Below, one piece after another: positions 12,786-40,249 of a stretch of DNA of 64,000 nt. Every line of letters begins with the position of its first letter. The stretch's first letter is position 1. The notes beneath the pieces were generated by a model, which did not search any database, was not told the origin of the DNA, and saw only the letters and a list, made by a program, of their open reading frames with translations. Origin of the DNA: a virus. Lineage: Duplodnaviria; Heunggongvirae; Uroviricota; Caudoviricetes. The translations under genes were made by a program, and so were the position numbers. Location of the stretch: IMG/VR virus record IMGVR_UViG_3300035034_003552; one strand, written 5' to 3'.

Positions 12786-12801
12786 TGGAGGTGAGTTGTA
12801 A

Positions 12802-15800: not shown

Positions 15801-17130
15801 CAAAAGAGACGAGAACTACTATATAAAACCCGGCAATACTTTAAAGGTAGAAATAGAAGGTAGTGACAATAAATTACTAACTCATAACCACCTCACGATA
15901 AGTGATGAAGTAAATATAAGTAGCATACATAACCTAGAAGATAATTCATTTACCGAATATAGTTCTGGTCAGTATGCGAAAATAGTTTCAGCAACCAAAA
16001 AAGATGACAACACGACAGTGTTTGAGGTAAAAATAAATAATGATTGTCCTAACGGAAAATCTTATTCAGTTAGTGGTTCCCATAAAGACGCTGCTGATAA
16101 TATCACAGACTTCACAACAGGTATGAATATTATAGTAGATGGCCAAAAAGCAGAGCTAATAAACTGGGAAGTTAAAAATTATGGTTATTATGATGGAAAT
16201 ATATACTGGGGTAAAGCTAACGAAGATATAGTATTAAATCTTGACAGTTATGACGACACAAGCGGTGCAGGAACAGCTTATATTGAACTTGTTAACAAAG
16301 AGACAGGCGACACAGAGAACGCCCTGTATAAACGTAATAACGGCTACCTACACGGTGATAGATATGATAGTAATACAGATATAATAAACGGCAGACTCAT
16401 AACTTCTGATAATAAAAGTATGGAAGTTGAGTTTGATATTAAATTAGGAGAAGAAAAAACAATTTATGATGTAATCCAGTCTTCTAATGATAACGCAGGG
16501 AATATAATGAGCCCCAGTATGCTAGATAAGGATATAGGAATTGACATAAACCCTCCTGCAATAGAGGTTAGCCCAGAAACAGTAATGTATAAGCCAAACA
16601 TAATAGAGGTTGACCTAAGTATAACAGATCCAGATTCTGGAGTTAATAAAGTTGAATATAAGTTCGACAATAGTACTTACTATAGTGATGATAACTTAAG
16701 AGAGACATCAAGTGACGATACGATCTATGTTGAAGCTCCAGGGGAATGGTACCTACACATAAAGGCAGAAGATAATGTAGGCAATACATCAAGAAGAACG
16801 TTTGGTCCTTATATCAATTACTCTGATCCTGAGCAGTATGTAAAAATAGGCAGAGCAGACGGAGAACAGTCAATACCATTATATAAACTGAATGAAAGAA
16901 TAGATAATAGATTTAGAATAAAACATAAGAACGAAGTACTCTGCATGGGATTAGTGGATCCAGATGATAAAAGAGCAACAAGTATAAGAATTAGAATGGA
17001 AGATAGAATATACGCGATAGAAGGCAATAACGAAGTATTTAGATTTTCTGAGTATTACGGTGTTTCGACATTCAACAAATACCACGGATTTGGATACGGA
17101 CAATTTAGACCACCAGAAGATATAGACTAG
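12802..17130 (+). CDS. Giant (1442 aa) Ig-like repeat protein; tail or host-recognition structural protein.
   Basis: SD 'aatggaggtg'. Multiple about 90-aa modules ending in the xDxAGNxS motif ('TAEDNAGNRKAKSITVSNIDKKRP', 'VKAIDEAGNQSDTKYVEFDVDTEAPEI', 'IKAEDNVGNTSRRTFGPY', 'SSNDNAGNIMSP'). Confidence 0.7.
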   Translation: MAGQKIVYDYYRERRGSWYWPTSNLREWLNSDQNNVGYTNNPPNSSNLGSDSYADEAGFLTNFTAAERNAIAVTRHRSYLRGVDNAVKDGGHKDADLSGYYYSTPFINYYSPDVEDNWTSYNYKIVDDKVFLFSQPELHHYVQSRDYSIKKPPSQYIRNKYNISSDYMRYFAESGTHYDRLFSISSNGESTQAIPSTDQGIVPALHLKPGYTLDNGKQVSNLDVGEEVIFGNYGGHQIKWKVVNKTNSNYALLWAKEVVTLKAFDAPNDDFSWEFSDYINFSNYDVDIINDLQKWYPTNDKTLPRLYLTNEDDLNSRQDGGWTLKLQADGTGSGIEKIVLPDGSEVYNDYAEYYITENKRYFIKVIDNGGNRNNLTIPVSNINPPSSVNINSSSDGWTNSPVNIEIKASNDIDDFYRAVINPSAKGSYTGPEFPDSISYVGKRFKISGYMETLDYSIDPGNLTAGVGFSYNTRRKIGDGYDITKTWPRQVSFRLKDMYQSKKYFEYEYTIDGNFSSSLKPFFHVTNSYHLYDFTVQYTDVKYELLDKSDFGINYIKLPNGQKIYQDTYTTTITEEGSYTFEVMDNRGVTTSRTIDVLIETNAPDLSISQEITEKTNQSYDLIVNASDSESGVKRILQPNGEWVNSNSLTYNIYQNGTYQFTAEDNAGNRKAKSITVSNIDKKRPIDPNIHVSGKGEHHVSLAWTAEDEDSEIETIKLYFQKSNSSGDYLRDVDIDGDGNTEYDINVNGLSSYTINNLEDYSYYRYYLRVIDSLGNVRNDGYYTVQTSDTTPPTIDITSHSDNSDIGYISGNQLTISGTAADNGEIDRIILNASGAVTLNDLVIDDSSPESWSYTRSYPEGHTRLEVKAIDEAGNQSDTKYVEFDVDTEAPEITWNNHTDHSWRNTVPDVHTNNIDTNSGIHSSKLAVTSSTTKPSNWVVDDSPGETHFINRLKNKPDGEWYCHIEITDENGNSTYEYDGPYKIDRTKPSHINHAITEEDFKRDENYYIKPGNTLKVEIEGSDNKLLTHNHLTISDEVNISSIHNLEDNSFTEYSSGQYAKIVSATKKDDNTTVFEVKINNDCPNGKSYSVSGSHKDAADNITDFTTGMNIIVDGQKAELINWEVKNYGYYDGNIYWGKANEDIVLNLDSYDDTSGAGTAYIELVNKETGDTENALYKRNNGYLHGDRYDSNTDIINGRLITSDNKSMEVEFDIKLGEEKTIYDVIQSSNDNAGNIMSPSMLDKDIGIDINPPAIEVSPETVMYKPNIIEVDLSITDPDSGVNKVEYKFDNSTYYSDDNLRETSSDDTIYVEAPGEWYLHIKAEDNVGNTSRRTFGPYINYSDPEQYVKIGRADGEQSIPLYKLNERIDNRFRIKHKNEVLCMGLVDPDDKRATSIRIRMEDRIYAIEGNNEVFRFSEYYGVSTFNKYHGFGYGQFRPPEDID

Positions 17131-17139: not shown

Positions 17140-17502
17140 ATGAGTATATTAACTAATACACCTGACTGGAGTGCGCAATCAGATAGAGTAATAGAACCAG
17201 ATTCAGCAAAGAAGTCAGCTGGGTGGCGGCTTGGAGAGGAGCCCCCTCCTGGTTACTTTAACTGGTTCTGGAATATAGTATCAGATTCACTTAGTATTTT
17301 AGACACACATAATCATGATAGCAGATATTACACTAAAAATCACTTCGATTCACATGACCACGACGATAAGTATTATACTAAAGACGATGTTAATAGCATG
17401 CTTGGTTCGACATATATTGAAAGTCCAACAGTTGGTAATATTATAGTTTCAGATACAGAACCAGTTAACGCAAATGAGAACGACATCTGGGTAAAGGTAT
17501 AA
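17140..17502 (+). CDS. Short fiber-adaptor protein: conserved N-terminal 'GWRLGEEPPPGYFNWFW' motif plus two HxHDxRYYTK repeats.
   Basis: SD 'aggagg'. The motif is shared with the 21336, 22686 and 23529 genes. 'THNHDSRYYTKNHFDSHDHDDKYYTKDD'. Confidence 0.7.
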   Translation: MSILTNTPDWSAQSDRVIEPDSAKKSAGWRLGEEPPPGYFNWFWNIVSDSLSILDTHNHDSRYYTKNHFDSHDHDDKYYTKDDVNSMLGSTYIESPTVGNIIVSDTEPVNANENDIWVKV

Positions 17503-17515
17503 AGGAGGTACTAAA

Positions 17516-20500
17516 TTGGCTTATATAACACCAAATAAAGAACCAGGCATATATATGGATCCATTTACTGTTGTCTTTAGTGTTGACAGTAGTGTAGCCA
17601 ACATAGCCTCTACAGATGATGGGAGTAATCCTACGATAGCGAAATATATCGCTTATGATAATCTTAATCCTCCCAATCCTTTCATAGCAACAGTACAGGA
17701 TGGAAGAGGTAATGTATTATTCGACGGTGGATTCCCTAAATATTACAATCATCGCTGCAATACTTCTTGGAATTCGTTCTCTGATCTAAATAACACTTTC
17801 AAATACTTCTATAATGCCCTGGACTGGATAGCGAATGATGACAAAGTAGCCGAGGGTAACCGCAAGATATTATTCTTAGGAGATGCTATCCCCGGGGAAA
17901 GTTATAATATAAAACAAACCGGTGGCAGTGATTTCAAAACCTCAATAGAAACTATGTGTAGGATCGGCAACTGGGATCCTACCTACAAAGTAAGAACAGA
18001 TTTTAGCGGCAACCAGATAGATTTAAGTTATGCTGATTTAGAACCTTATGCGGCAGTATTTTTAATGTCGAGCAGGCACACAAGTAATAAATACATCACA
18101 GATAATACCGTGAATAATATACTTGCTTTCAGAGAAGCAGGTAATGGTATGTTTATCATAACAGACCATGGTTCAAGTGCTAATACTGGTTTCTATAAAA
18201 CAGCTAATTATATAGCAGAAGAACTTGGAGCTTATTTTATAGGAGATTATGACAGATCCCCGGTAAATGTTGGATACTTAATAGATAATTACGGAAACCA
18301 TCCTCTTTGGAACGGAATGGCCAGAAGTGATTCTATTTCAGCAGGAGGATCTGAATCAGAAATAATTGTAGATGAAACGCCGACCACTACAACTGCTGAC
18401 TCACTAACAGTAAATGAGCAGGGATTTAAGACAGCAAGATTCTTAATCGAATTAGACAGCGGAGAAAAAGTATTTGAAACTTATTCCTACGGACTTAATG
18501 CTGGTGATCCTGTAACTATCCACAATGATTTAGAAAATGGAGTAGAAAAGATAGGCTTTGGAAGAACGATTGATTTAGAATTCACAATAAACTTAGGAAT
18601 AATGGATAGTGCAAGTGGGCTTGTAAAAAGAAACAGTGATGTTTTAGCTCAGTGGTCAAAAGACAGCAGCAATAGAACAACAGAATGGTTCACGGATAGC
18701 GGTAATAATACGATCAAGGTAGATAATGGGGACAACATAGAAATAGAAATGCAGAATCCAGTATATTATTCCGAGTCTTTTACTGTAAATGCAGCCCCAA
18801 GAGATTCAAGTGCTATTAGTATAAATCTTAAAGATAAACGAAGTGAATATATATCAGTTGACTGGACATATAACAATAGAATAGAACTTGACTATCTAGA
18901 GTTTATCTTTCTCAAAAATGAGGACGGAGGAACCCAGGTAGATATTGACGATGATGGAACGCTCGAAGATAAGATGAACCTAAACAATGCCTCTTCTTAT
19001 AGTGTATCCAATCTTGAACCAGCTACTGAATATAAATACAAATTAAGAGTTTATGATAAAAACGGCGGCAGCCTGGATAGTGATTACTATACTACAAAGA
19101 CTGATGGGGCTTTTAAGGTTAAGATAGACAATAATTTTAAAGTACCTAAAAATATGCTAGTTAAAAAAGACTCTGGATGGGTTAAACTAGAGACCTCAAT
19201 AAAAAGAGATGGTAATTTTAAAGAACTTGATACCGGTAACACAATAAGAACTCAGCTTTTTAATACCGATATGTGGAGTGAATTCTCCAAAGAAGTAAGA
19301 GCTATTCATCTGATAGAAAACGACAGTGACATATACAATACTGAACTGATAGATGTGATTGAAGTTATAGATTTTTACGGCGGGACAGCAGAACTTGTAA
19401 AGAGCGACTCACTTGTGGAAACTTATGTAGACTTTACAAGTACAGATGGCCCGGGCCAGCCGGCAGGATTTACCTATATGGTAGAAAACGCTGAAGGCAA
19501 AAAACATATTGGCCACTGTCAGTTGGATATAACCGAACCGCCCACACTTGTTGCTAATGATGATTCTTTCGATATATATGAAGGTGGGTTTATTAACATT
19601 TACAAATCACAGATGCTTGATAATGATTACGATGAAGGCGGAAATGGCCCCATAGAAATAATAGGATTTTCTGATGTAACAGGAGGATCACTAACAGAGT
19701 ATGATAACTACGTAAGATTTGATGTAACAAGCCTGGTAGGTGAAGCCGCTGAGTTTAAGTACACCATAACAAATACTATAGGTCTTGAAACTACAGCTTA
19801 TGTAAAACTTATAATAAGGAAAGGCCTAATAGCAGGTACAGATACCATCGAAGCCTATAAGGATATAGAAAAGACAATACCACTTTCCACTCTTGATGTT
19901 GAGGATATATCAGAAAACCCTCCCGTAATTTTAACTGGTTTAAGCAATGTCAGTGGCGCAACAGCAACCCATGATGACAGCAGTATTTACATTAAACCTA
20001 CAGATCCAGATGGGACTACTATTTCTTTTAATTACTCAGTTAAAAACGATATAGATCTTACGGATACGGGTACCGTAAGCATAGGCATTCAGCCAACACC
20101 TCAGCTTCAAGCTTCAGATGATACATTTGAGGTTACCCAGGGTAAGGAGCTCATACTTTCCAAGTCTGATCTATCTGATAATGATAGTGATGCTGGAGGA
20201 TTTTATCCCTTAACGGTAACCAATGTTCATAGTCCTATTGGAGGTAATCTCAATGTTAGTGGAGATACCATAACTTTTGAATCAACAGGCTTGGCCGGGG
20301 AAGAAGCTGGCTTTAAATATGATATAAAAAATACTCAGGGGATAACACAGACTGGTAATGTTTATATAACAGTTAATCCACTACCAGCAGTAGAGGCTTT
20401 GGTTTACAACAGCACCGCGGAAACAGAAGCAGTACTTGACCAATACACACCACCAACAATGAAAGATATGTTTGATGACTGGTACAGATTTGCTCATAGC

Positions 20501-21316
20501 GGCAGCAGTATAAAAATAAATCCAGTAAGAGGATATTCTGTAGGTTATGTTGATTTATATAGTGAAGACGTTTGGACTTACAATTCATCAACTGATGAGG
20601 TAATATGTCAGATAAATTCAGTACCATATATAGGATTCATTTCTAATGACACTATAGAAAACTTCACTTTTGAAGCTAATTTCAGAGCAATAGGTGATGA
20701 TGATGCAATGTCATTTGTTATCGCTTTTGTGGAAGAAAACGGAGATGAATATACACTCTCAGCAGTAAGAGATCACGGTGGTAGTAATAGTGGGACAATA
20801 GCAGGGAACAATCACTGGGCCATATATTACAACTACAAAAGATCAAGTGCAGATATGTTAGATTATGTGGGAGAAGGAACAATAAGAGTAGGTAGTGGTA
20901 GTTGGAGTTCGTATCCATCAGGCACAAACGTTAAGGTAGAAAGAGAAGGTAATATCATAACTGCTTATACAAGTCAATTTGGAGAAGAATCATATGTTCC
21001 GTCATCTAAGCTGACTGTGGATTTAGATAGTGACCCAAAACTCCATAAATTTAAGGGAGAGCAAAGATATGGTTATGGTTCTCACTCTCAAAATCAGTCA
21101 ACATTTAGCAGTATAAACATTCAGGGTGGTATGAACAAAAATAAAATATATAACTTTGATACAGGAGAAGTTTACGTATATAACGAGAATACCATGCAAT
21201 GGGAAGTTTCTGATACCACTATCCAAGATGAAATTGGTTATGTGAGAGAAGTAGTAAATCCAGAAACTGGTGACAGATATTTAGTAAAAGAAAACGAGAT
21301 TATAAAAATGACCTAA
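17516..21316 (+). CDS. Giant (1266 aa) adhesin-like protein with three cadherin-like/VCBS-type repeats and a C-terminal lectin-like region; TTG start.
   Basis: SD 'aaggagg' + 7 nt + TTG. Repeats 'ANDDSFDIYEGGFINIYKSQMLDNDYDEGGNGPIEIIGF', 'ASDDTFEVTQGKELILSKSDLSDNDSDAGGFYPLTVTNV' and 'IAGTDTIEAYKD...' resemble bacterial cadherin-like / VCBS repeats (xDDxxxVxxGxxLxIxxxxLLxNDxDxDG). Confidence 0.65.
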   Translation: MAYITPNKEPGIYMDPFTVVFSVDSSVANIASTDDGSNPTIAKYIAYDNLNPPNPFIATVQDGRGNVLFDGGFPKYYNHRCNTSWNSFSDLNNTFKYFYNALDWIANDDKVAEGNRKILFLGDAIPGESYNIKQTGGSDFKTSIETMCRIGNWDPTYKVRTDFSGNQIDLSYADLEPYAAVFLMSSRHTSNKYITDNTVNNILAFREAGNGMFIITDHGSSANTGFYKTANYIAEELGAYFIGDYDRSPVNVGYLIDNYGNHPLWNGMARSDSISAGGSESEIIVDETPTTTTADSLTVNEQGFKTARFLIELDSGEKVFETYSYGLNAGDPVTIHNDLENGVEKIGFGRTIDLEFTINLGIMDSASGLVKRNSDVLAQWSKDSSNRTTEWFTDSGNNTIKVDNGDNIEIEMQNPVYYSESFTVNAAPRDSSAISINLKDKRSEYISVDWTYNNRIELDYLEFIFLKNEDGGTQVDIDDDGTLEDKMNLNNASSYSVSNLEPATEYKYKLRVYDKNGGSLDSDYYTTKTDGAFKVKIDNNFKVPKNMLVKKDSGWVKLETSIKRDGNFKELDTGNTIRTQLFNTDMWSEFSKEVRAIHLIENDSDIYNTELIDVIEVIDFYGGTAELVKSDSLVETYVDFTSTDGPGQPAGFTYMVENAEGKKHIGHCQLDITEPPTLVANDDSFDIYEGGFINIYKSQMLDNDYDEGGNGPIEIIGFSDVTGGSLTEYDNYVRFDVTSLVGEAAEFKYTITNTIGLETTAYVKLIIRKGLIAGTDTIEAYKDIEKTIPLSTLDVEDISENPPVILTGLSNVSGATATHDDSSIYIKPTDPDGTTISFNYSVKNDIDLTDTGTVSIGIQPTPQLQASDDTFEVTQGKELILSKSDLSDNDSDAGGFYPLTVTNVHSPIGGNLNVSGDTITFESTGLAGEEAGFKYDIKNTQGITQTGNVYITVNPLPAVEALVYNSTAETEAVLDQYTPPTMKDMFDDWYRFAHSGSSIKINPVRGYSVGYVDLYSEDVWTYNSSTDEVICQINSVPYIGFISNDTIENFTFEANFRAIGDDDAMSFVIAFVEENGDEYTLSAVRDHGGSNSGTIAGNNHWAIYYNYKRSSADMLDYVGEGTIRVGSGSWSSYPSGTNVKVEREGNIITAYTSQFGEESYVPSSKLTVDLDSDPKLHKFKGEQRYGYGSHSQNQSTFSSINIQGGMNKNKIYNFDTGEVYVYNENTMQWEVSDTTIQDEIGYVREVVNPETGDRYLVKENEIIKMT

Positions 21317-21335
21317 AAAGAAAGGCAGTGATACT

Positions 21336-22109
21336 ATGGAAAATTACGATTTACCAGAGTGGACTCCCGCCGCCAACCTAATAATAAAACCCGATACAGA
21401 ACGAATAAATCTAGGTTGGAACGCAGGAGAAAAGCCACCACCTGGCCACTTTAACTGGTTTTGGAGCACAACCTATAAAGCCTTAGAAGTGCTGCAGGAT
21501 CATAGACATGATGATAGATACCACACCAGAATGGAGATGAGTAACCTATTAGGAAATGTATCCCCTAAAGGTCACCAACATGAAGGTGGGGATGTAATAT
21601 CAAAAGTTTCTCTAGCGGCCATCGCCGAAGAAGCTCAGGACTCAAAATTACTGGAAGGTCGCCAGGCCGAACAGTTTGCAGATAACGTACACTACCACGA
21701 TGATCGATACTACACCGAATCAGAATTAGACAATAAATTAAATCTAAAATCTAATTCTGGCCACACTCACAATTACTCACCTGATGACCACATACACTCA
21801 GATATTTACAAGACAGAAGAAGAAATATATCACCTTGCCTCAATGGTAAGTGTCCAAGATTTATCTATTCTTCAGGGTTCAATAGAGGACGGAGAAAGAC
21901 TACCACTTCCAAGCGGATTTACCGAAAGCGAATGCCAATGGATGGTCAGCCCACGACATGTAGTGACTACAGGTAATACAAATGGTTATGATGACGGGAA
22001 GGGTATAAGGTTTTATGTTGATAACAATAGAGATGTAGTAGCAAGATTTGATGGCTTGGGCGGTATGAGCGGAACAGCAAATTATATGGTAATAGGAGTT
22101 AAAAAATAA
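21336..22109 (+). CDS. Tail fiber paralog: N-terminal PPPGHFNWFW adaptor motif, HxH repeats, C-terminal domain of type II (shared with the 24349 gene).
   Basis: 'GWNAGEKPPPGHFNWFWSTT...DHRHDDRYHTR', 'VHYHDDRYYTESELDNKLNLKSNSGHTHNY'. The C-terminal 'LPLPSGFTESECQWMVS...NYMVIGVKK' aligns with the 24349 C-terminus 'LPIPSGFLRQECHYMAS...NYIVIGVR'. Confidence 0.75.
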   Translation: MENYDLPEWTPAANLIIKPDTERINLGWNAGEKPPPGHFNWFWSTTYKALEVLQDHRHDDRYHTRMEMSNLLGNVSPKGHQHEGGDVISKVSLAAIAEEAQDSKLLEGRQAEQFADNVHYHDDRYYTESELDNKLNLKSNSGHTHNYSPDDHIHSDIYKTEEEIYHLASMVSVQDLSILQGSIEDGERLPLPSGFTESECQWMVSPRHVVTTGNTNGYDDGKGIRFYVDNNRDVVARFDGLGGMSGTANYMVIGVKK

Positions 22110-22122
22110 AAGAGGTGGAATA

Positions 22123-22557
22123 ATGTACTTACTTATTAATACAGATAAAGAAACTATTTATGGGTTCGCATCAAGCAAACCTAATACAGATGACTTAGAG
22201 AAAAATAATTGTACAGCAGTAAAATATACAGGAGATAAAGATTATTCATTGCTTAAGCCGGATATAACTGATGGTGTAGTAATGGATGTAATAGACAAAA
22301 CTGAATACTTTATGAGTGCCGATGATCAGCAGATAAATGCCGGTACGGATACTACTTATATTAAAGCTGCAGTAAAAGATGGTGACAGTGACAAAGTTGA
22401 GTTTATAGTAAATGATGAATCAGTTGGTGTTACCATGACAACCGACACTGTTGCCGAACTTGAATTTAGTGCTGATAATCCAGGTATTTATACTATAACA
22501 GCAAAAAGTGTTGATAAAAGATACTTAAGCAACTCAATAAACATAGAGGTGATATAG
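22123..22557 (+). CDS. Hypothetical small protein following a fiber gene; possible fiber assembly or chaperone protein.
   Basis: SD 'agaggtgg'; 144 aa. Its position and size resemble those of the 26341 gene, which also follows a fiber gene. Confidence 0.55.
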   Translation: MYLLINTDKETIYGFASSKPNTDDLEKNNCTAVKYTGDKDYSLLKPDITDGVVMDVIDKTEYFMSADDQQINAGTDTTYIKAAVKDGDSDKVEFIVNDESVGVTMTTDTVAELEFSADNPGIYTITAKSVDKRYLSNSINIEVI

Positions 22558-22558
22558 T

Positions 22559-22675
22559 ATGTCAGATCTTAAATTTAATGGGACAAAGCCAAAAGAAAAA
22601 GAACCGGCAGAAAAGATAAAAGACCTCGAAGCTAGAATAGACAAGCTAGAAGAAATAATAAAAGAAAACGGATAG
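22559..22675 (+). CDS. Small (38 aa) coiled-coil peptide ORF, below the ORF-track cutoff.
   Basis: SD 'agaggtga' then ATG at 22559. It ends exactly where the next gene's SD begins. 'MSDLKFNGTKPKEKEPAEKIKDLEARIDKLEEIIKENG'. Confidence 0.35.
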   Translation: MSDLKFNGTKPKEKEPAEKIKDLEARIDKLEEIIKENG

Positions 22676-22685
22676 GAGGCAGTAA

Positions 22686-23516
22686 ATGGGATACTTAGAT
22701 GAAGTACCACAGTGGAATCCACCATCACTCAAAAAACATGCCCCAACACCTAAGAAAATAGAAGAAGGTTGGAATATAGACGAAAGACCGCCGGCTGGAT
22801 ATTTTAACTGGTTTTGGAGTGTTACAGCAAAAGCAATACAAGTATTTGATACTCACGATCACGACTACAAATATATAATCAGAGGCGAAGATGGAGCTAT
22901 CTCAGAAGAAATGCTCCAGTCAAACATTATAAATAACGAACATCTCTCAATGGATTTTAACTTAGAAGAGTACGGGGTAGCAGATACAGCACACGATCAT
23001 GATTCCAAGTACCTAAATAAAAATGGTGACACAATGTCTGGATCTTTAACCATAGGGAGAAATGCATTGCTTAAAAAGGTAACAAGTAACTCAGTAGAAA
23101 CCATAATAAGCAGTGATGGAAGAGTCTGGAATGCAGTATATAACGATATAGCTGAGATGTATAAAGCAGATAAATGGCTTAAAGAAAATCAAGTTCTTGT
23201 CTGGGATGGAGAAAAAGTCACAACGACTACTGAGAAAGAAGATAAAAGAGTCATTGGTGTTTATTCTGATACCTACGCTCAATGCCTGGGAGGACAACCC
23301 GATAGTAAGGGTGTAGTACCAATAGGAATAAGCGGAAAAGTAAAGGTCAAAGTGAAAGGACCTGTTAGCTCAGGTGATCTATTAACTACATCTGAAATAC
23401 CGGGAGTTGCTGTTAAATCAGAAAACAAAGAATTAGGAACAATATTCGGAAAGGCAATGACAGATGTCAAGGAAGACAAGATTAAAATTATATGGGCTTT
23501 CATAGCCGTAATATAA
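22686..23516 (+). CDS. Tail fiber paralog: N-terminal adaptor motif, HxH repeats, C-terminal domain of type I (shared with the 26799 gene).
   Basis: 'GWNIDERPPAGYFNWFWSVT...THDHDYKY', 'AHDHDSKYLNKNGDTMSGSLTI'. The C-terminal roughly 150 aa 'GRVWNAVYNDIAEMY...VIGVYSDTYAQCLGGQPDSKGVVPIGISGKVKVKVKGPV' aligns with 26799 'GRVWNSVYNDLAEMF...VVGVYSDTFAQCYGGQPDDEGAVPIGIAGRVDVKIKGPI'. Confidence 0.75.
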   Translation: MGYLDEVPQWNPPSLKKHAPTPKKIEEGWNIDERPPAGYFNWFWSVTAKAIQVFDTHDHDYKYIIRGEDGAISEEMLQSNIINNEHLSMDFNLEEYGVADTAHDHDSKYLNKNGDTMSGSLTIGRNALLKKVTSNSVETIISSDGRVWNAVYNDIAEMYKADKWLKENQVLVWDGEKVTTTTEKEDKRVIGVYSDTYAQCLGGQPDSKGVVPIGISGKVKVKVKGPVSSGDLLTTSEIPGVAVKSENKELGTIFGKAMTDVKEDKIKIIWAFIAVI

Positions 23517-23528
23517 GGAGGTAAATAA

Positions 23529-24335
23529 ATGTCAATAACAAATAAAATTCCAATTTGGAATTCTCCAAATAGTAAGATGGTTAATCCTCCAAGCTCGAAG
23601 ATAAATAGTGGTTGGAATCCCGGGGAAAAACCGCCAGCATACTATTTCAACTGGTTCTGGACCGCAACATCAAAAGCACTTGAAGAAATAAACAATCACT
23701 TACATGATTCAAGGTATGCAAGAATAAGCCACAACCACAATCAAAGTGATTTAGATATCAGCACTCACGAGAATAAAGACTCGGGAATACACGGAGTTGG
23801 AGCAAGTGAGATAGAAAGCACTTACGGAGCCCAGCAAAAAGCTGACATAGCAGAAAATAGGGCAAAAAATTACGCAGAAGATTTAGCAAGTGATGCAGGT
23901 GTCCCAACAGGAGCTGTAATAATGTGGACAGGGTCTACTTCTAATATACCAAACGGTTGGACTCTATGTAATGGTAATAATGGAGCACCAAATCTACAGA
24001 ATAGATTCGTAGTAGGAGCTGGAGCTTCTTATAGTGTAGGCAATACTGGTGGTGCTATATCAGTAAGACTGACAGAAGAACATATGCCATCACACTCCCA
24101 TACGGGTAACACTAGTTCAGGTGGAAATCACAGACATAGGATGAGCGCTAGATCGTGGACACATGCTGGTTTTAATCATATAAATGCTGCTGACACTACA
24201 GGTGCTAGCGGTAGTGTCTATACAGACTACAATGGGGCTCACTCTCATTCCTTTACGACTAGAACCACTGGTGGAGATCAGAGTCACGAAAACAGACCGC
24301 CATATTACGCTTTAGCATATATTATGAAATTATAA
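23529..24335 (+). CDS. Tail fiber with N-terminal adaptor motif and C-terminal phage tail-collar domain.
   Basis: 'GWNPGEKPPAYYFNWFWTAT...NHLHDSRYAR'. C-terminal 'GAVIMWTGSTSNIPNGWTLCNGNNGAPNLQNRFVVGAG...ENRPPYYALAYIMKL' matches the tail-collar signature (xIPxGWxLCNGxxGTPDLRxRFxVGAG...eNrPPYxALxYII). Confidence 0.8.
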   Translation: MSITNKIPIWNSPNSKMVNPPSSKINSGWNPGEKPPAYYFNWFWTATSKALEEINNHLHDSRYARISHNHNQSDLDISTHENKDSGIHGVGASEIESTYGAQQKADIAENRAKNYAEDLASDAGVPTGAVIMWTGSTSNIPNGWTLCNGNNGAPNLQNRFVVGAGASYSVGNTGGAISVRLTEEHMPSHSHTGNTSSGGNHRHRMSARSWTHAGFNHINAADTTGASGSVYTDYNGAHSHSFTTRTTGGDQSHENRPPYYALAYIMKL

Positions 24336-24348
24336 GGGAGGTGGATAA

Positions 24349-26325
24349 ATGCCACTTACTGACGAAGAAATGGAAAATAGGATACTCGAATTAGAGAGTG
24401 CGCTCGAATACCACGACCACATAGTACTATTTGAAAACGGTGGCGGGGGAGCGGACATTAAAAAGAATGCATTAACCTCAGAGCTTTCCACAGAGATCAA
24501 TAACAACTCCTCACACAGACTTACCCTTCAGAAAAACCCTCATGAAACAAGGGCACATCAAATACTTATCACTTCAGGCTCGTATCAGAGCCACAATATC
24601 GAAGAAGCTTTAAATATCATAGAAAATGACAGCCAAATAAATTATGGTGAACTGGAAGAATTCGCCGCACAGAAAACTAACACCATAAAAACCGGTGATG
24701 CCGTAACAAACTGGACTACAGCTGAGGCCTCAACCAAGAACAACAGGGCTCTCTTCGATCTGATAGGCAGTCATAAACATGATTCCAGATATCTTAATAT
24801 AGATGATTTCAATAACGAGATAGACAGGCATTATGATAGTGATGACCATGATGAAAGATACTACACCAAAGATAAGATGAACAGTGACCTCAACCTAAAG
24901 TCTAATAAAACACACCTTCATGATGATATTTATTTAAGGAGAAATCAGCTCGATGATCTGTATTTTAATGTAGCTGACGATGAACTCAATATAGACCTTG
25001 AGCTAATAAAGAATTCACCTAAAGTAATCCTGGACGATAAGAGCACTAACGGTAAGAACATACAGTTTAAGTCAACCAATGAGAGATTAGAGGTCGAAAT
25101 AAATAATAACCTAGCTGCTACCTTAAAGAAGGACTTTAACGTGCTCACATCTGGTGAAATTAAACTGCGGGGAACACCGGTATCCCTAGAAGGACATATC
25201 CATGATAACAGGTATTATACAGAAACAGAAACTCAGGACTTATTAAAAGATAAGTCGGAAAAAGGTCATGTGCACGACCATATATACTACAGAGAATCAG
25301 AAGTAGATAATTTCTTAGACGGCAAAACTGATGTTGGCCATGTGCATGTTGAACACTACACAAGAGAACAGGCTGATGATAGGTTTGTCAATGTAACTAC
25401 TGATTCAATAGAGAAACTTACTGTAGAAGATAAATTAATAATGAATGAGAGAATAGACCTGCACGAAAAAGGAATGCTTTTTAAAAGCTATATGTCTGGG
25501 ATAAATGTTAGCAATGATCCAGGCGGAGAACTGAGCATGAAAATTGATGCCGGCAACTTAGACCAGCTTTATTTGGATACTGACAAAGTAAAGGTTAGAA
25601 GAAACCTTGAAGTTGTTGGCGATATAGAACTGGGCCATCTAATAAACGGTGTCAATATAGAAGACTTAAATGAAGATTACAATTACCATAAGGCTCAGAG
25701 CGATTCTCACCACGAAAAATACACAGACCGCGAAGCAAGAGTAGCAATCTACAATGACTCAAACCACTACGATTTATCCAACCACCAACATAATCATAAT
25801 GATATATATTATAAAAAAGACTTTCTGGATTCAAGGTTCGATCAGAAATCAGATAAAGGCCATGATCATGATGATCAGTATATGCCAATAGATGAGCTGC
25901 AGAAAGAGCTTGATAATAAATCAGATATAGACCACCTTCACGATGATAGATACTACACCAAAGATAAGATGAATGAACAGATAACTCTAATAGGTGACGA
26001 GCTGGCCAGAAAATCAAACAAAACTCATGACCATAATGAAGAATATTACACTCATGATGATGTTGAAAGAATAATAGAAGAAAGAACTGGTAACAGCACC
26101 TATATAGTAAGTGGAGAAATAGTAACTGACATAAATGGTAGGGCCACACTCCCCATTCCATCGGGATTCTTAAGACAGGAGTGTCACTACATGGCTTCTA
26201 TAGGTGAGAATACACTGATACCATATTCCAGTTCTGGAATAGATATAAATAGAAGTAATGGTGAAATAAGAGTGCGTCCAAGCAGCGTAGATTCAGTAAA
26301 CTATATAGTAATTGGTGTTAGATAG
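24349..26325 (+). CDS. Histidine-repeat tail fiber (658 aa): at least 10 copies of an HxHDxRYYTK-type motif, C-terminal domain of type II.
   Basis: 'SHKHDSRYLNIDDF', 'DDHDERYYTKDKMNSDLNLKSNKTHLHDDIYL', 'GHIHDNRYYTETE', 'GHVHDHIYYRESEVDNFLDGKTDVGHVHVEHYTREQADDRF', 'NHQHNHNDIYYKKDF', 'GHDHDDQYMP', 'IDHLHDDRYYTKDKMNEQ', 'THDHNEEYYTHDDVE'. The C-terminus is shared with the 21336 gene. Confidence 0.75.
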   Translation: MPLTDEEMENRILELESALEYHDHIVLFENGGGGADIKKNALTSELSTEINNNSSHRLTLQKNPHETRAHQILITSGSYQSHNIEEALNIIENDSQINYGELEEFAAQKTNTIKTGDAVTNWTTAEASTKNNRALFDLIGSHKHDSRYLNIDDFNNEIDRHYDSDDHDERYYTKDKMNSDLNLKSNKTHLHDDIYLRRNQLDDLYFNVADDELNIDLELIKNSPKVILDDKSTNGKNIQFKSTNERLEVEINNNLAATLKKDFNVLTSGEIKLRGTPVSLEGHIHDNRYYTETETQDLLKDKSEKGHVHDHIYYRESEVDNFLDGKTDVGHVHVEHYTREQADDRFVNVTTDSIEKLTVEDKLIMNERIDLHEKGMLFKSYMSGINVSNDPGGELSMKIDAGNLDQLYLDTDKVKVRRNLEVVGDIELGHLINGVNIEDLNEDYNYHKAQSDSHHEKYTDREARVAIYNDSNHYDLSNHQHNHNDIYYKKDFLDSRFDQKSDKGHDHDDQYMPIDELQKELDNKSDIDHLHDDRYYTKDKMNEQITLIGDELARKSNKTHDHNEEYYTHDDVERIIEERTGNSTYIVSGEIVTDINGRATLPIPSGFLRQECHYMASIGENTLIPYSSSGIDINRSNGEIRVRPSSVDSVNYIVIGVR

Positions 26326-26340
26326 AAAGGAGGATTATAA

Positions 26341-26799
26341 GTGTTTTATTTACTTGATGAAGATACATTAGAGATAAAAGCCTCTCTTAGAGGGAAGCCC
26401 AACATAGAGGAGATAGAAAAAAACGGAATCATAGTCCTAGACTCACATTATGAATACTCTCCTCGAAAACTTGAGGCGGTCAAAAACTATGACAAAATAC
26501 GACTTACCTTCAAGCCCGAGATTAAAACTTACACAGAGGTCAACAAAAATCACATAATAATTAATATAGAAATCCATAAAGAAAATGGAGATATAGATAC
26601 AGAAAGATCAGAAGACTTAACCATATTCAGAGAAGACTATGATAATCCAGATGATACTTTTTTCACCGAGGTAACATTAGAAAATGGTAAAGCCAGAAAG
26701 GAACTAGTAGTTAAAGATACTGGCAAGTATATTATCGAAGTCAGAAACTCTAACTTTAGTGACACCTCTGAGACGGTAGTTGTGGAGGGGATTATCTAA
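26341..26799 (+). CDS. Hypothetical small protein following a fiber gene (GTG start); possible assembly or chaperone protein.
   Basis: SD 'aaaggagg' + GTG; 152 aa. The N-terminus 'MFYLLDEDTLEIKASLRGKPNIEEIEKNG' resembles that of the 22123 product 'MYLLINTDKETIYGFASSKPNTDDLEKNN'. Confidence 0.55.
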   Translation: MFYLLDEDTLEIKASLRGKPNIEEIEKNGIIVLDSHYEYSPRKLEAVKNYDKIRLTFKPEIKTYTEVNKNHIIINIEIHKENGDIDTERSEDLTIFREDYDNPDDTFFTEVTLENGKARKELVVKDTGKYIIEVRNSNFSDTSETVVVEGII

Positions 26800-28940
26800 T
26801 GTCAAAGATTATAAAAAGAACAGATCAGACTTATGAAGAAGTTAAAACTAATTTTGAAATAAACGTTCTCAATGATATAGAAACAATTTTTAAGGATATA
26901 GATGCAGAAATATCAGAAAGAATAACTTCTGATGAAGAACTCCAGATTCAAATAGAAAGCCTCAGTGGAGATCTAACATCACAGGTAAGTTTAATAAACA
27001 ACATGATAACAGAAGAGACTAATAGGATAGACAGCAGAGTAGATCAGGAAATCTCTACTAGGGAAATAGAAGTAGAAAACTTAAATACTCGTGTCGATAA
27101 AGAGATTACCGATAGGAAAAACGAAGTAGATAGGCTTGACACCAGGGTAACAGACGAGGCTAATAAAAGGCTCAATGAAGATACACAGCTGCAGAATAAT
27201 ATAGATACACTGGAAAACTATACAGTTAATAATGTATCAAGGATAGATACTGACATATCGAATCTCGAAAATAGGACATCCTCCCTTAATGCAACTGTCA
27301 ATAAAACAATAAATGACAATGAAACAGATAGTATAAATAGGGACAATGATCTGCACGATAAAGTAGATCAAAACGAGGTAGAAAGTATTGACCGAGACCA
27401 GGAGATAAAAGATAAACAGTTTTACATACTGGCCCAGGAGGAAAAGAGTACCTCAGTAGATACAACTTCTGTTACTTTATCCACTGACCTAAACGTTGTA
27501 AGTGACCCCGATTATGTAACAATAAAGAACTTAGATGGATCAGAAGTATTAGACAGCAGCGGTAATCCTGTAGTGGCTGTCTCGATGTCCGATAAGACGG
27601 TAACACTAAGTGAGGCGCCCAATGAGCCGATAAAGATAGAGTTTGCCCATAGGAAGCATTTCTGGAACCTCTCAGCCGACTCGATGCTGGTTGGAGATAT
27701 AGTATCCTCCAGAAAAGACGCAGACATATCAGAGATAATTGGAGTGAAGTATTTTGACGGAACAAAGTCAGTATTCGATAATGATTCACTTGATGTAAGA
27801 ATTGACACTTTAGACAGTGATATTAATTCAAGAGTGGACAATGAAGTCTCTACTTTAAACAGCAGGATGGATAGTGAAGTCTCAACCTTAAACTCCAGAA
27901 TTACCTCAGAAAGAAATACCCTAAACGATAGAATAGATTCTGAAGTAAGTTCGCTGGATTCTGATATAGCCAATCTGGATTCAAGGGTAACTTCAGAGAA
28001 AAATACCTTAAATAACAGAATAGATAGTGAGGTATCCACATTAAACTCCACCATAAACAGTGAAGTTTCTACATTAAATAGCAGAATAGATACTGAAGTA
28101 TCTAATCTTAATACAGCAATAGACACAAGTCATACCTCGCTTCAAAATCAGATAGACTCACTTTCAGATGATTACAACTCTCACCTCCATGATAGCAGAT
28201 ACATTATGGAGGCTGGAGATACAATGCGCGGGAAGTTAAACATGAATGGTAATAAGTTTGTTGTTTATGGAGACAACTCAGATGGTGCATATCTTAATAG
28301 TGATAGCGGCATTTCTGGCCCTAATGATAACTTATTTATCGCAAAAACAGATGCACAGGGCATTCCCGATGGCAACATAGTAATAGGCTGGCATAACTTG
28401 GCTAACGGTTCTAAAGGGAAAGACATCACTATAGATCCTAACAATCTAATCCATCTTCACGAAACTACCCGTCTCTCTCAAGGGGCCACTCTTCAGAAGA
28501 CAAAATCAAATGGAGCAACAGACACTATAATAGATGATCATGGTAGAGTCTGGAACTCTGTTTACAATGACCTGGCAGAGATGTTTGACTGTGACGTAGA
28601 TGCTTCTCCTGGGGACATAATGTCGATTAGTGATGGTAAAGTAATAAAATCTCAACGATATTACAGCGAGAAGGTAGTTGGTGTTTACTCAGACACTTTT
28701 GCTCAATGTTATGGTGGTCAGCCTGATGATGAAGGAGCTGTTCCAATAGGGATAGCAGGTCGGGTTGATGTTAAAATAAAAGGTCCCATAGAAGAAGGTA
28801 ACTTAATAACTTCAAGCAAGGAGGAGGGTGTCGGACAGAAGGCAGATGTTCACGTTGTAGGCACGGTAATAGGAAAGGCTTTAGAGAACAAAGAATCAAA
28901 GGGAGTAGAAAGAGTCAAGATGCTCATACTAAATAACTAG
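26799..28940 (+). CDS. Coiled-coil tail fiber with 9-11 aa tandem peptide repeats and C-terminal domain of type I.
   Basis: Long 'ETNRIDSRVDQEISTREIEVENLNTRVDKEITDRKNEVDRLDTRV...' coiled coil. Repeat block 'RVDNEVSTLNSRMDSEVSTLNSRITSERNTLNDRIDSEVSSLDSDIANLDSRVTSEKNTLNNRIDSEVSTLNS'. 'NSHLHDSRYIMEAGDTMRGKL'. The C-terminus is shared with the 22686 gene. Confidence 0.75.
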   Translation: MSKIIKRTDQTYEEVKTNFEINVLNDIETIFKDIDAEISERITSDEELQIQIESLSGDLTSQVSLINNMITEETNRIDSRVDQEISTREIEVENLNTRVDKEITDRKNEVDRLDTRVTDEANKRLNEDTQLQNNIDTLENYTVNNVSRIDTDISNLENRTSSLNATVNKTINDNETDSINRDNDLHDKVDQNEVESIDRDQEIKDKQFYILAQEEKSTSVDTTSVTLSTDLNVVSDPDYVTIKNLDGSEVLDSSGNPVVAVSMSDKTVTLSEAPNEPIKIEFAHRKHFWNLSADSMLVGDIVSSRKDADISEIIGVKYFDGTKSVFDNDSLDVRIDTLDSDINSRVDNEVSTLNSRMDSEVSTLNSRITSERNTLNDRIDSEVSSLDSDIANLDSRVTSEKNTLNNRIDSEVSTLNSTINSEVSTLNSRIDTEVSNLNTAIDTSHTSLQNQIDSLSDDYNSHLHDSRYIMEAGDTMRGKLNMNGNKFVVYGDNSDGAYLNSDSGISGPNDNLFIAKTDAQGIPDGNIVIGWHNLANGSKGKDITIDPNNLIHLHETTRLSQGATLQKTKSNGATDTIIDDHGRVWNSVYNDLAEMFDCDVDASPGDIMSISDGKVIKSQRYYSEKVVGVYSDTFAQCYGGQPDDEGAVPIGIAGRVDVKIKGPIEEGNLITSSKEEGVGQKADVHVVGTVIGKALENKESKGVERVKMLILNN
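27797..28130 (+). repeat. Tandem about 27-33 nt DNA repeats encoding the (D/T)SEVSTLNSRI peptide repeats inside the 26799 fiber gene.
   Basis: Read directly. The repeats also create the spurious antisense ORF 27512..28126 (repetitive 'SILLFKVETSLS'). Confidence 0.6.
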
Positions 28941-29299: not shown

Positions 29300-29629
29300 A
29301 TGTACGAATATAAAGCAGTTGTAACAAGAGTAATAGATGGTGACACATTTGAAGCCAATGTAGATTTAGGATTTAAAACCTATCAGAGACAAACCTTCAG
29401 ACTAAAGGGTGTTGATACTCCAGAAGTTTATGGAACAGAGGAGATAAGAGGTCTGGAAGCAAAAGATGTTGTTGAGAATATGATTTTAGGCAAAGAAGTT
29501 ATTATCGAGACAGAAAAGACTGGCAGCTTCGGTAGATGGATAGCAGATGTAACGGTACCCAGAGAAAATGGGGGAATTAATTTAGGAGATTTACTAATAA
29601 AGAATGGTTTGGCAGAAATATACGAATAG
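29300..29629 (+). CDS. Thermonuclease (staphylococcal nuclease, SNase-like) family protein.
   Basis: SD 'aggagg'. 'VIDGDTFEANVDLG...QRQTFRLKGVDTPEV' matches the SNase signatures (DGDT ... RLxGIDxPE); 109 aa. Confidence 0.7.
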   Translation: MYEYKAVVTRVIDGDTFEANVDLGFKTYQRQTFRLKGVDTPEVYGTEEIRGLEAKDVVENMILGKEVIIETEKTGSFGRWIADVTVPRENGGINLGDLLIKNGLAEIYE

Positions 29630-40220: not shown

Positions 40221-40249
40221 TTGACAGCATTACATTTGAGTGTTATAAT
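40221..40249 (+). promoter_or_regulatory. Consensus sigma-A/sigma-70-type promoter (TTGACA-17-TATAAT) for the replication/recombination module.
   Basis: 'ttgaca' 40221-40226, 17-nt spacer, 'tataat' 40244-40249. The ORF-track entry 40221..41093 starts at this 'ttgaca' and is an artefact. Confidence 0.7.

Follow-up and report, generated by a model that had tools for sequence, protein, structure and literature searches.

Several groups of tailed phages deploy more than one receptor-binding protein (RBP). In Ackermannviridae CBA120 (TSP1-4), Alcyoneusvirus RaK2/phiK64-1 and the Klebsiella dual-RBP phages, several RBPs combine conserved N-terminal anchors with exchangeable distal modules, as do the fibres described here. 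Those phages rely on tailspike depolymerases and on branching domains like that of T4 gp10; in contrast, the stretch of DNA that we analysed (64,000 nucleotides; the window) encodes four fibres that have a wedge joint in common, and our searches of it found no branching domain. The docking of a single fibre has been visualised in Pectobacterium phage phiTE: cryo-EM shows the N-terminus of its short tail fibre (STF) as a globular joint attached to wedge 1. Each wedge protomer there has a single wedge 1, and there is a single STF site (PMC11972413). In Bacillus phage 0305phi8-36, domain substitution is on record for the hyperplastic baseplate/fibre region (PMC2147016).

Sequence comparison identifies our locus as a tail-fibre (host-recognition) cluster of an uncultured jumbo myophage of about 200 kb, a distant relative of 0305phi8-36. 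By the same comparison, it occupies the hypervariable fibre slot already known for that lineage: the expanded slot here is flanked by homologues of gp164-166 and gp171-175 and corresponds to gp167-170 in the 0305phi8-36 region (gp162-170). The joint-bearing fibres, unlike the slot itself, are absent from the syntenic regions examined in 0305phi8-36 and KLEB27-3, and were gained in the sub-lineage of this phage.

The gene coordinates given in an earlier note on this DNA all proved accurate (Table 1), and every gene of the cluster has a GGAGG ribosome-binding site. In L002, a relative of 202 kb, gene order is kept, the proteins are mostly 61-68% identical, and the paralogues are even more numerous than here. 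The g10233/g12802 region matches a tail fibre family (phrog_19567, 8e-10), and Big_13, FN3 and DUF6273 were also found there; g28953 has no family match in Pfam or PHROG and is not in the L002 gene list. Truncated paralogues of other virion genes, g9095 and g9663, lie close by.

Some of the fibre paralogues might be decaying duplicates that do not function in the virion, a reading that could draw on the very short g17140 and on the nearby g9095 and g9663. However, all of the ORFs are uninterrupted and have strong ribosome-binding sites, and the conservation of order and sequence in L002, which has still more copies, argues against decay. We consider this explanation highly improbable.

Table 1. 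Genes of the fibre cluster and the modules assigned to them (aa, amino acids; positions are those of the window).
Gene	Position	Strand	Modules and remarks
g10233 (850 aa) and g12802 (1442 aa)	10233..17130	+	upstream fibre/adhesin-like proteins, same expanded slot
g17140, 120-aa mini-fibre	17140..17502	+	joint 17140-17304 (aa 1-55); HxH aa 57-80; cap 17383-17499
g17516, 1266-aa adhesin-like virion protein	17516..21316	+	conserved N-terminal domain; FN3; Big_9/cadherin-like repeats
g21336, 257-aa short fibre	21336..22109	+	joint 21336-21497; five HxH repeats; type II tip ~21840-22106
g22123, 144 aa, type II partner	22123..22557	+	chaperone-like N-terminus; Ig-like C-terminus; weak Big_7/Big_3_5
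g22686, 276 aa	22686..23516	+	joint 22686-22850; short shaft; gp12-type autochaperone 23145-23513 (D154 on)
g23529, 268 aa	23529..24335	+	joint 23529-23693; collar/Gp10_C-type tip ~23880-24332
g24349, 658-aa long fibre without joint	24349..26325	+	coiled-coil N-terminus; ten HxH repeats; type II tip ~26065-26322
g26341, 152 aa, second type II partner	26341..26799	+	chaperone-like; N-terminus similar to g22123
g26799, 713-aa long fibre without joint	26799..28940	+	11-aa coiled-coil repeats 27851-28125; gp12-type autochaperone 28569-28937 (D591 on)
g28953, 97 aa	28953..29246	+	last small gene of cluster

The N-terminal joint and its proposed docking partner

Four genes (g17140, g21336, g22686 and g23529) had been proposed to begin with a nearly identical segment of about 45 residues. 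We found that the homology is real and extends over about 55 residues, but that "nearly identical" is too strong (32-39% identity over 77 aa). Pairwise blastp among the four gave E values between 1e-18 and 2e-21; the aligned stretches were 57-239 aa long and 31-49% identical, with identity reaching about 44-49% in the pairs that align over the core of about 57 aa alone. In all four proteins this segment, hereafter the joint or adaptor, forms the extreme N-terminus (residues 1-55), and 18 positions are invariant, including W10, P20, G28, W29, E33, P35, P36 and F40-N-W-F-W44; an HMM of the adaptor matches g17140 with an E value of 1.7e-23. Models of the adaptor monomer had pLDDT values of 55-81 in one case and 87-91 in the other. 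The motif has no Pfam or NCBIfam match in profile searches, in agreement with the earlier view that it belongs to no named family, and it is embedded in several PHROG tail-fibre families. The suggestion that modules were shuffled between the paralogues, which would imply recent exchange, was not supported: the shared modules are old, the best-conserved 40-nt core is only 68-83% identical in DNA, and we found no long tracts of near-identical DNA among them.

The adaptor is widespread, with 1,864 cluster representatives. In the best 150 of these it is N-terminal (residues 1-52) in nearly all, and the proteins that carry it range from 63 to 876 aa and end in many different C-terminal domains. Similarly, tblastn detected joint homologues (35-53% identity over 35-56 aa) in fibres of Bacillus phage Sam46 (gp24), Listeria phage B054 (gp26), Aeribacillus phage AP45 and Geobacillus phage D6E. 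In the fibres of Bacillota P2/PBSX-like myophages the joint is always N-terminal and the distal parts are highly variable, as here. Those phages, however, are 40-50 kb in size and carry a single joint beside Baseplate_J and an I-like gene, whereas this phage of about 200 kb has four joints and no adjoining wedge gene. Among 80 fetched adaptor-carrying loci, 79 have one adaptor ORF and a single locus (L083) has two, as compared with four copies here and five in relatives. This multiplication of a joint that is normally single-copy is the sole unusual trait of the locus.

In 78 of the 80 loci the adaptor gene is preceded by an ORF of about 200-215 aa and a Baseplate_J ORF of about 385 aa. The order Baseplate_J, wedge gene, adaptor is also annotated in Sam46 and B054, and in phiTE and in Aeromonas and Vibrio phages the fibre gene likewise comes directly after Baseplate_J and a wedge-1/gpI-like gene of about 210 aa. 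Searches of the 64-kb window by blastp, HMM and hhalign detected no homologue of wedge 1 or Baseplate_J, so the proposed docking partner is unseen here; from synteny, both genes probably lie just left of the window.

The known structure nearest to the joint is the phiTE STF (phiTE_236; PDB 9CUY/9MJN). Both it and the joint-bearing window fibres have an N-terminal segment of the form G-(W/Y)-x-x-G-x-K-P-x-A-x-x-F-N-(W/Y), and the adaptor profile matches the N-terminus of the STF (9cuy) with an E value of 0.0044 and, by hhalign, with 64% probability; in a shuffle test the match scored 27.0 bits, whereas the best of 2000 shuffles reached 13.4. The STF was also the first-ranked of 350k chains in a Foldseek search with the g21336 model, but with an E value of 0.55 and a TM score of 0.43; the link is thus marginal on each single measure. 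The STF gene lies directly 3' of a gene for a wedge protein of about 210 aa, whose family is also the one found in the Bacillota phages: wedge 1 is phiTE_235, recognised by its single Cys at 143, and belongs with the genes upstream of the adaptor elsewhere (6.6e-10). In phiTE the segment stands at the start of a trimeric fibre, and its docking is demonstrated. The two systems are only distantly similar, and they differ in that phiTE has one such fibre, with a distal part of coiled coil and Ig domains and a Caudo_TAP-type assembly protein; the window has four, and the wedge gene is not among its genes.

The earlier proposal of a common docking site is therefore supported by the N-terminal position of the joint ahead of many different C-terminal domains, its genomic coupling to the wedge (78 of 80 loci), and the wedge-bound state of a distant member in cryo-EM. 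Because the adaptor follows a wedge gene elsewhere and the phiTE STF has been seen bound to its wedge, the segment that the four fibres have in common most likely serves to dock varied distal parts to the baseplate.

Type I and type II C-termini

The earlier note had described two C-terminal domains, each shared by two fibres. The type I domain is indeed common to g22686 and g26799 (46% identity over 144 aa, E 2e-38) and has 852 homologues. It had been read as an interchangeable receptor-binding module; profile, motif and fold instead point to an autochaperone of the phi29 gp12 type. The family profile matches phi29 gp12 in the PDB (E 4.4e-5), as well as the isolated autochaperone of gp12, starting DFAEYF, and the predicted type I fold agrees with the autochaperone domain. 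Pfam Peptidase_G2 (PF11962) is matched by 35 of 124 family members (best 1.6e-8), with g22686 itself at 19.2 bits, under the 25-bit cut-off. The cleavage-site Asp and the Glu three residues on are both present (D154-I-A-E157 in g22686, D591-L-A-E594 in g26799) and are conserved across the family, as is the Ala (D in 118/119, A in 115/118, E in 116/118). The motif aligns to S|DFAEYF of gp12 (D692/E695); the 3suc chain has DFAQYF. By analogy with the gp12 pre-neck appendage autochaperone (MEROPS G2, PF11962; PDB 3GQH, 3SUC), to which type I is 19% identical, the domain would be expected to be cleaved off, leaving a predicted mature g22686 of residues 1-153. The carriers differ: the gp12 autochaperone rides a beta-helix tailspike, whereas type I rides thin HxH/coiled-coil fibres. 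In L002, the slot of g26799 is taken by a protein of 202 aa that shares its N-terminus but has, in place of the autochaperone, the cap described below. The N-terminus of g26799 resembles 0305phi8-36 gp168 by eye only, and not significantly.

The type II domain, common to g21336 and g24349, is more weakly conserved than type I but real. With the HxH repeats left out, the Smith-Waterman score was 69, whereas shuffled sequences averaged 25 and peaked at 56 (z 9.6; none of 2000 reached the real score). The relationship is confirmed by outside homologues in Aeromonas, Vibrio and Xanthomonas phage fibres (33-38% identity), and the Aeromonas phage 2L372X short tail fibre can be aligned with g21336 over its whole length (E 8e-14). 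The type II domain is a mobile fibre tip. Its model is of moderate confidence, and Foldseek gave no significant fold match.

We found that a small gene follows all six type II tips whose surroundings were examined (the window and L002 have two each, Aeromonas and Vibrio one each); the g24349 and g26341 orthologues in L002 are 61% and 42% identical, respectively. The Aeromonas and Vibrio fibres lie 3' of a wedge gene and a baseplate gene of about 205 aa, and the small overlapping gene comes next. The cassettes of 2L372X (gp077/gp076) and Vibrio vB_CoeS_P1 share with g21336 the joint, short shaft and type II tip ending ...NYxxIGV(K/R), and with the window the overlapping small gene 3', whose product begins M-(Y/H)-Y-I-F-N-K.... 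The likeness of g22123, in position and N-terminal motif, and of g26341 to these partner genes is confined to about 50 N-terminal residues (Vibrio, 12.0 bits against a shuffle maximum of 6.3; Aeromonas, 5.5 bits, equalled in 2 of 1000 shuffles). The 2L372X/vB_CoeS_P1 partner ends in a Phage_tail_APC chaperone domain (PF16778), the Pfam family of the Aeromonas gene, whereas the C-terminus of g22123 and of g26341 is Ig-like. Neither window protein matches a chaperone family in Pfam, PHROG or NCBIfam, and g22123 has only weak Ig-like matches.

Since type II has a partner gene, probably for its chaperone, and type I an autochaperone, the swapped C-termini would represent two folding strategies, in trans and in cis, respectively, rather than two receptor-binding domains. 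The alternative, that both are interchangeable receptor-binding domains on a common adaptor, giving about five receptor specificities, has some points in its favour: each type is common to otherwise unlike fibres, type II stands at the extreme C-terminus of other phages' short tail fibres, as fits a distal tip, and Foldseek returned weak, non-significant matches to lactococcal RBP heads. We regard this alternative as quite unlikely.

Cap, collar tip and shaft

The smallest fibre, g17140, had been described as the adaptor alone. We found instead that two HxH shaft repeats follow the joint and that about 39 residues at the C-terminus (82-120) form a cap, which recurs at the C-terminus of an L002 protein of 202 aa with a different N-terminus (E 2.5e-5). 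The adjacent g17516 matches phrog_11065 (3.5e-113), and its C-terminal domain is related to 0305phi8-36 gp163 (4e-28); L002 has an orthologue, 68% identical, and an extra paralogue of 1775 aa. Pfam matches of g17516 are to Big_9 (1.1e-10; 42.7 bits, cut-off 23.6) and, below their cut-offs, to Cadherin_5 and FN3. The collar domain ascribed to g23529 is supported by PHROG (phrog_1800, tail collar fiber protein, 1.4e-32, residues 118-268) and on tblastn matches to tail collar fibres in 134 phage records; in Pfam, Collar (PF07484; 18.7 against 24 bits) and Gp10_C (PF21939; 18.6 against 27 bits) remain below threshold.

The six fibres contain 2, 5, 2, 5, 10 and 2 H-x-H sites, most but not all of them in repeat units of the H-x-H-D-x-R-Y type. 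Pfam PTR (PF12789) on g24349 falls just below its 27-bit cut-off (24.4 bits, 3.2e-5), and distant homologues of g21336 mostly match through the HxH repeat alone.

The g17140-g17516 pair is kept in L002 with the same 13-nt spacing. This arrangement, the lack of a recognisable wedge joint in the two long fibres, the recurrence of the cap at the end of another short L002 protein, and the branched complexes documented in Ackermannviridae and Alcyoneusvirus are all consistent with a connector role, in which g17140 and mature g22686 (153 aa) would not bind receptors but link the wedge to the joint-less g17516, g24349 and g26799 in a branched complex. However, the only likeness to branching domains (T4 gp10-like XD) that was found is the Gp10_C-type tip of g23529, and g21336 is an end-to-end homologue of a stand-alone short tail fibre. 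We therefore consider a connector role unlikely.

Proposed arrangement on the baseplate

Our results suggest that the four joint-bearing fibres plug into the wedge and differ in their distal ends, and we regard this explanation as a whole as probable. Three copies of the joint (about 55 aa each) would most likely insert together, in trimeric form, into a wedge protein of the baseplate that resembles P2 gpI and phiTE "wedge 1" and is presumably encoded beyond the window. A shaft of HxH-D-x-R-Y-Y-T repeats follows, which by analogy with T4 gp37 may bind metal. The fibres would then end in one of four ways: in the short cap (g17140); in the type II tip with its small downstream gene (g21336 with g22123, g24349 with g26341), probably a folding chaperone or else a tip-bound accessory; in the phi29 gp12-type intramolecular chaperone, which would trimerise the fibre and then cut itself off before D154 (g22686) or D591 (g26799), a step predicted from the fold and motif seen there; or in the collar/Gp10_C-type tip (g23529). 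Because the autochaperone would remove itself, a conserved strand, ...TIIxxxGRVWNxVYN, would form the mature tip of such fibres. Both long fibres (g24349 and g26799) have other N-termini and so would attach elsewhere.

The six wedge sites might also be contested by all four fibres that have the joint, so that each virion carries a random mixture or the dominant fibres vary with expression conditions; the four would then not be displayed side by side at separate sites. The single joint beside a single wedge gene elsewhere, the one STF site of phiTE (PMC11972413), and the retention of the same invariant residues in all four joints are consistent with such competition. Against it, the baseplate of the 0305phi8-36 lineage is unusually complex, with many extra virion proteins (PMC2147016), such that several sites are conceivable, and joints of just 32-39% identity leave room for different partners. 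We judge competition to be somewhat unlikely. It is similarly doubtful, though conceivable, that the amplification of the joint to four or five copies in this sub-lineage yields stochastically mosaic virions, with differing fibre sets on equivalent wedge sites (bet-hedging of host range), or a baseplate with multiplied docking sites.

The type of system is not new; the locus well exemplifies a known modular design and provides a Gram-positive jumbo-phage case of plug-and-play receptor-binding-protein logic. It makes a very common motif without a Pfam or NCBIfam model, LPEW..G.EP..KK..GW..GEKPPA.YFNWF, readable as a wedge-docking joint, and this joint would mark a safe fusion point for fibre swaps in Bacillota phages and tailocins. 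For such swaps, the type I C-terminus, as a predicted self-removing chaperone, should not be taken for a specificity determinant, and the type II tip, which moves together with its downstream gene, is best transferred along with it. A testable question raised by the four- to fivefold amplification of the joint is that of fibre stoichiometry on the baseplate. If mosaic virions or multiplied sites prove true, they would represent a route to multivalency unlike the branched adaptors of Ackermannviridae and Alcyoneusvirus.

The fibre cluster and its shared modules

Between 17.1 and 29.3 kb, the window carries ten closely spaced plus-strand ORFs, each preceded by a GGAGG-type ribosome-binding site at the usual spacing. 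Among its products are at least six fibres: four bear a common N-terminal segment of about 55 residues, the joint, and two long ones, g24349 and g26799, lack it and must attach by other means. The basic observation of the earlier note, a shared N-terminus combined with shared C-termini, is essentially right. Using pairwise blastp, we found that the N-termini of g17140, g21336, g22686 and g23529 are homologous (E 1e-18 to 2e-21), with 18 invariant positions that include G28-W29, E33, P35-P36 and F40-N-W-F-W44; the segments had been described as nearly identical, and here homology holds while near-identity does not (32-39% over 77 aa). The sharing of C-terminal domains was borne out for both types: type I of g22686 and g26799 is 46% identical over 144 aa (E 2e-38), and type II of g21336 and g24349, aligned locally with the HxH shaft repeats removed, scored 69, a value reached by 0 of 2000 shuffles (mean 25, maximum 56, z 9.6).

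Features in and around the fibre cluster (window coordinates; ORFs are named by their start)
Feature	Position	Length (aa)	Strand	Assignment
g4165				match to gp164 (vWA) of 0305phi8-36
g7814				match to gp165/166 (FN3) of 0305phi8-36
g9095	9095-9634	179		FN3 N-terminal likeness
g9663	9663-10208	181		match to gp167 N-terminus of 0305phi8-36
g17140		120	+	joint-bearing
g21336		257	+	joint-bearing
g22686		276	+	joint-bearing
g23529		268	+	joint-bearing
Antisense ORFs	27472-28126			opposite g26799
Tandem repeats	27851-28125			within g26799
SNase gene	29300-29629			stand-alone
g29643-g36678				matches to gp171-175 of 0305phi8-36, then primase and DnaB
Replication module and reductase	40221-45389 and 56238-58628			

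The four joint-bearing fibres differ distally: g17140 ends in a cap, g21336 in a type II tip with a partner in trans, g22686 in an autochaperone in cis, and g23529 in a collar/Gp10_C tip (phrog_1800, 1.4e-32). Thus g17140, previously taken for the adaptor alone, is a mini-fibre that combines the joint with two HxH repeats and the cap. Each of the six fibres has between 2 and 10 H-x-H sites, and most of these fall within HxH-D-x-R-Y-Y-T shaft repeats (Pfam PTR-type). T4 gp37 is the established precedent for a metal-binding HxH shaft, and by likeness to it the repeats, arranged as a trimeric shaft, probably coordinate metal ions. Within the long fibre g26799, an S-x-L-N-S-R-I-D-S-E-V coiled-coil is encoded by imperfect tandem repeats of 33 nt (11 aa); the long ORFs on the antisense strand there probably arise as artefacts of this repetitive sequence.

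We asked whether the modules had been exchanged recently between paralogues. At the DNA level, identity between paralogues is 68-83% in the best 40-nt adaptor core, and a search for long near-identical tracts between the paralogues of the window found none. The modules were therefore not swapped recently within this genome: the absence of long, highly identical tracts rules out recent recombination between paralogues, and the shared modules are old at the DNA level.

The joint, its gene neighbourhood and its likely docking site

The FNWFW motif had not been assigned to a named family, and indeed neither Pfam nor NCBIfam holds a model for the joint; several PHROG tail-fibre families match it at their N-termini. 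A strict FNWFW pattern scan recovered one locus, and a broader alignment was needed. A homologue search with g21336 was discarded as evidence for the joint, as the proteins returned mostly share just the HDDRYYTE shaft repeat. The exhaustive profile search used only the first 55 residues, cut ahead of the first HxH repeat, and at E <= 1e-3 it yielded 1,864 cluster representatives. For the best 150 of these, the match lies nearly always at residues 1-52 of proteins of 63 to 876 aa. Their C-terminal parts include Phage_fiber_2, Gp10_C, Gp53-like_C, Peptidase_G2, C1q, Collar and endosialidase domains, and most belong to no family. Examples with an annotation are named as tail fibre or receptor-binding proteins and come from myophages of Bacillota (AP45, D6E, B054 gp26, Sam46 gp24). 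One match, P0139 (1512 aa), was hit in 24 separate stretches and resembles an unrelated W- and PP-rich repeat protein; it is probably spurious.

The joint is single-copy in 79 of the 80 viral loci fetched by the profile. Three loci nominally have two joints, and two of these are double-domain artefacts; L083 (5718-7190 and 9971-11077), alone among the 80 unrelated loci, has two joint ORFs, a possible independent duplication. In 78 of 80 loci, the joint gene is directly preceded by an ORF of ~200-215 aa, a DUF2612-like 'I-like' baseplate protein, itself preceded by a ~385-aa Baseplate_J ORF. A literature search on XkdV found nothing. The Methanosarcinales virus vir515 was rejected as a parallel for the joint, since its N-termini lack it and likeness begins only at the HxH repeat. 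That virus (L001 7569-9672) encodes three tandem collar-type tail proteins of ~232 aa, after the tape measure and a 611-aa protein, with their own short common N-terminus (M-A/S-Y-x-x-x-x-W-T) unlike the joint, and thus offers an archaeal-virus parallel to the fibre paralogy seen here.

Window-only alignments of the three modules gave nothing useful against the PDB, and deeper profiles were required. The broader joint profile matches the N-terminus of the short tail fibre (STF) of Pectobacterium phage phiTE, residues 27-66 (PDB 9CUY/9MJN, E 0.0044), at 27.0 bits versus a maximum of 13.4 in 2000 shuffles; hhalign gave 64% probability. In a structural model of g21336 (joint pLDDT 87-91), the phiTE STF chain ranked first of 350,542 PDB chains by fold, weakly (E 0.55, TM 0.43). 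Phage phiTE has the same gene order, J-like gene, 214-aa baseplate protein, STF, and the 214-aa protein belongs to the family of the Bacillota upstream ORFs (6.6e-10). Its sole cysteine, at 143, identifies it as the 'wedge 1' to which the globular joint at the STF N-terminus is attached (PMC11972413). From the match, the gene order, the wedge 1 family and the published structure, we interpret this N-terminal segment as a probable wedge-docking joint, in agreement with the common docking site proposed in the earlier note.

Searches by blastp, HMM and hhalign detected no wedge-1 or Baseplate_J homologues in the window, and none in gp159-175 of the jumbo Bacillus phage 0305phi8-36; P2 gpV and gpJ homologues have been reported in the latter's lineage (PMC2147016). 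In the related phage KLEB27-3, gp041 weakly matches both models (Baseplate_J 1.4e-7; the wedge 1 family 4e-4), and the J-like wedge gene of that phage is found upstream of the stretch that corresponds to the left end of the window. It is therefore likely that the docking partner is encoded just beyond the window. The exact protein is absent from the records searched, and no relatives that would extend the window leftwards were found in IMG/VR.

Type I and type II distal modules

The type I profile, with 852 homologues, matches phi29 gp12 in the PDB, the isolated gp12 autochaperone fragment starting DFAEYF, and tailspike 'chaperon domain D4'; 35 of 124 type I homologues match Pfam Peptidase_G2 (IMC autoproteolytic domain). 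By these sequence matches, type I, which had been listed among the distal modules of interchangeable receptor-binding proteins, is a predicted chaperone and not a receptor binder. Self-cleavage is predicted immediately N-terminal to D154 (g22686) and D591 (g26799); the mature forms, of 153 and 590 aa, would then terminate in a conserved ...GRVWNxVYN strand. A gp12-type autochaperone domain is also present in P0286, P0322 and P0346, from MAGs labelled Woesearchaeota, Chloroflexota and Deltaproteobacteria, and its distribution is therefore far wider than Bacillota phages.

Counterparts of the type II tip, the last 89 residues of g21336, occur in tail fibres from phages of Aeromonas, Vibrio and Xanthomonas, at 33-38% identity over >90% of the tip. 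The 232-aa fibre of Aeromonas phage 2L372X has the joint (26 bits) and aligns with g21336 end to end (E 8e-14). In the Aeromonas and Vibrio phages, genes for a wedge subunit and for a ~205-aa baseplate protein of the wedge 1 family precede the type II fibre, and an overlapping ~135-aa gene comes after it; the Aeromonas product exceeds the curated cut-off of the Pfam Phage_tail_APC chaperone. The partner genes g22123 and g26341 and their counterparts in the uncultured relative L002 begin with a motif in common with the Aeromonas and Vibrio chaperones, M-(Y/F)-(Y/L)-L-(I/L)-(N/D)...KPN..(D/E)(L/I)EKN. Its likeness to the Vibrio gene has modest support (12.0 bits versus a maximum of 6.3 in 1000 shuffles), and that to the Aeromonas gene is marginal; these proteins end in an Ig-like domain, whereas the Aeromonas and Vibrio chaperones end in a chaperone tail. 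At each of the six type II loci examined, such a partner gene follows the tip. We therefore treat tip and partner as one cassette, in which the mobile type II tip is accompanied by a gene whose putative role is that of chaperone or tip accessory. A fold search with the type II domain gave no significant match because model confidence was too low.

Relatives and variation in the fibre complement

Megablast against 50,697 phage records found no DNA-level relatives of the locus. At the protein level, the flanking virion genes have relatives at ~28-32% identity in KLEB27-3 and 0305phi8-36, both jumbo Bacillus myophages, and in Moorella phage MTATph1, with clear synteny to 0305phi8-36, whose gp167-170 slot is occupied here by the fibre cluster (about 10.2-29.3 kb). 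Adjoining baseplate/fibre genes of that phage (orfs 162-164) were termed 'hyperplastic' (PMC2147016). The likeness of its gp168/gp169 to the N-termini of g26799 and g22123/g26341 is by eye only, with a score that is not significant. Left of the cluster, the likeness of g9095 to the FN3 virion proteins g7814, gp165 and gp166 is confined to their N-terminus, and g9663 matches just the first third of gp167 (591 aa); both are truncated or split forms of larger virion genes. The staphylococcal-nuclease (SNase) gene between the cluster and the gp171-like virion gene is kept in L002; in the related prophage BtI1, an SNase domain is fused to the hub protein (PMC2147016). The replication module includes a Rad52-like protein, an archaeo-eukaryotic-type primase (PriS/PriL-like domains) and DnaB, with a large ribonucleotide reductase beyond it, and the coding strand switches near 58.7 kb, where GC skew reverses sign.

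The closer relative L002 (ENA ERZ27245728 k141_29228, a contig of 202,621 bp) keeps the gene order, with most genes 61-68% identical at the protein level, and differs from the window in entire genes and modules. Between the collar fibres of the two there is only 29% identity, and the slot of the 713-aa g26799 holds a 202-aa protein with the g26799 N-terminus and a cap resembling the g17140 C-terminus (E 2.5e-5). These differences show directly that modules are replaced between relatives. L002 also has a 1775-aa paralogue of the 1266-aa adhesin and a 205-aa fibre with joint and Gp10_C (L002 4014-9341 and 9353-9970), both absent from the window; the number of fibre genes thus varies among close relatives.

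Together, these results uphold docking and modularity as the interpretation of the locus, without type I as a receptor binder or g17140 as a bare adaptor. A conserved anchor with exchangeable distal modules, chaperones in cis and in trans, and virions with multiple receptor-binding proteins are already well documented. The sole feature for which we found no parallel is the amplification of the joint, single-copy elsewhere, to four copies in the window and five in relatives, which raises the question of fibre stoichiometry.
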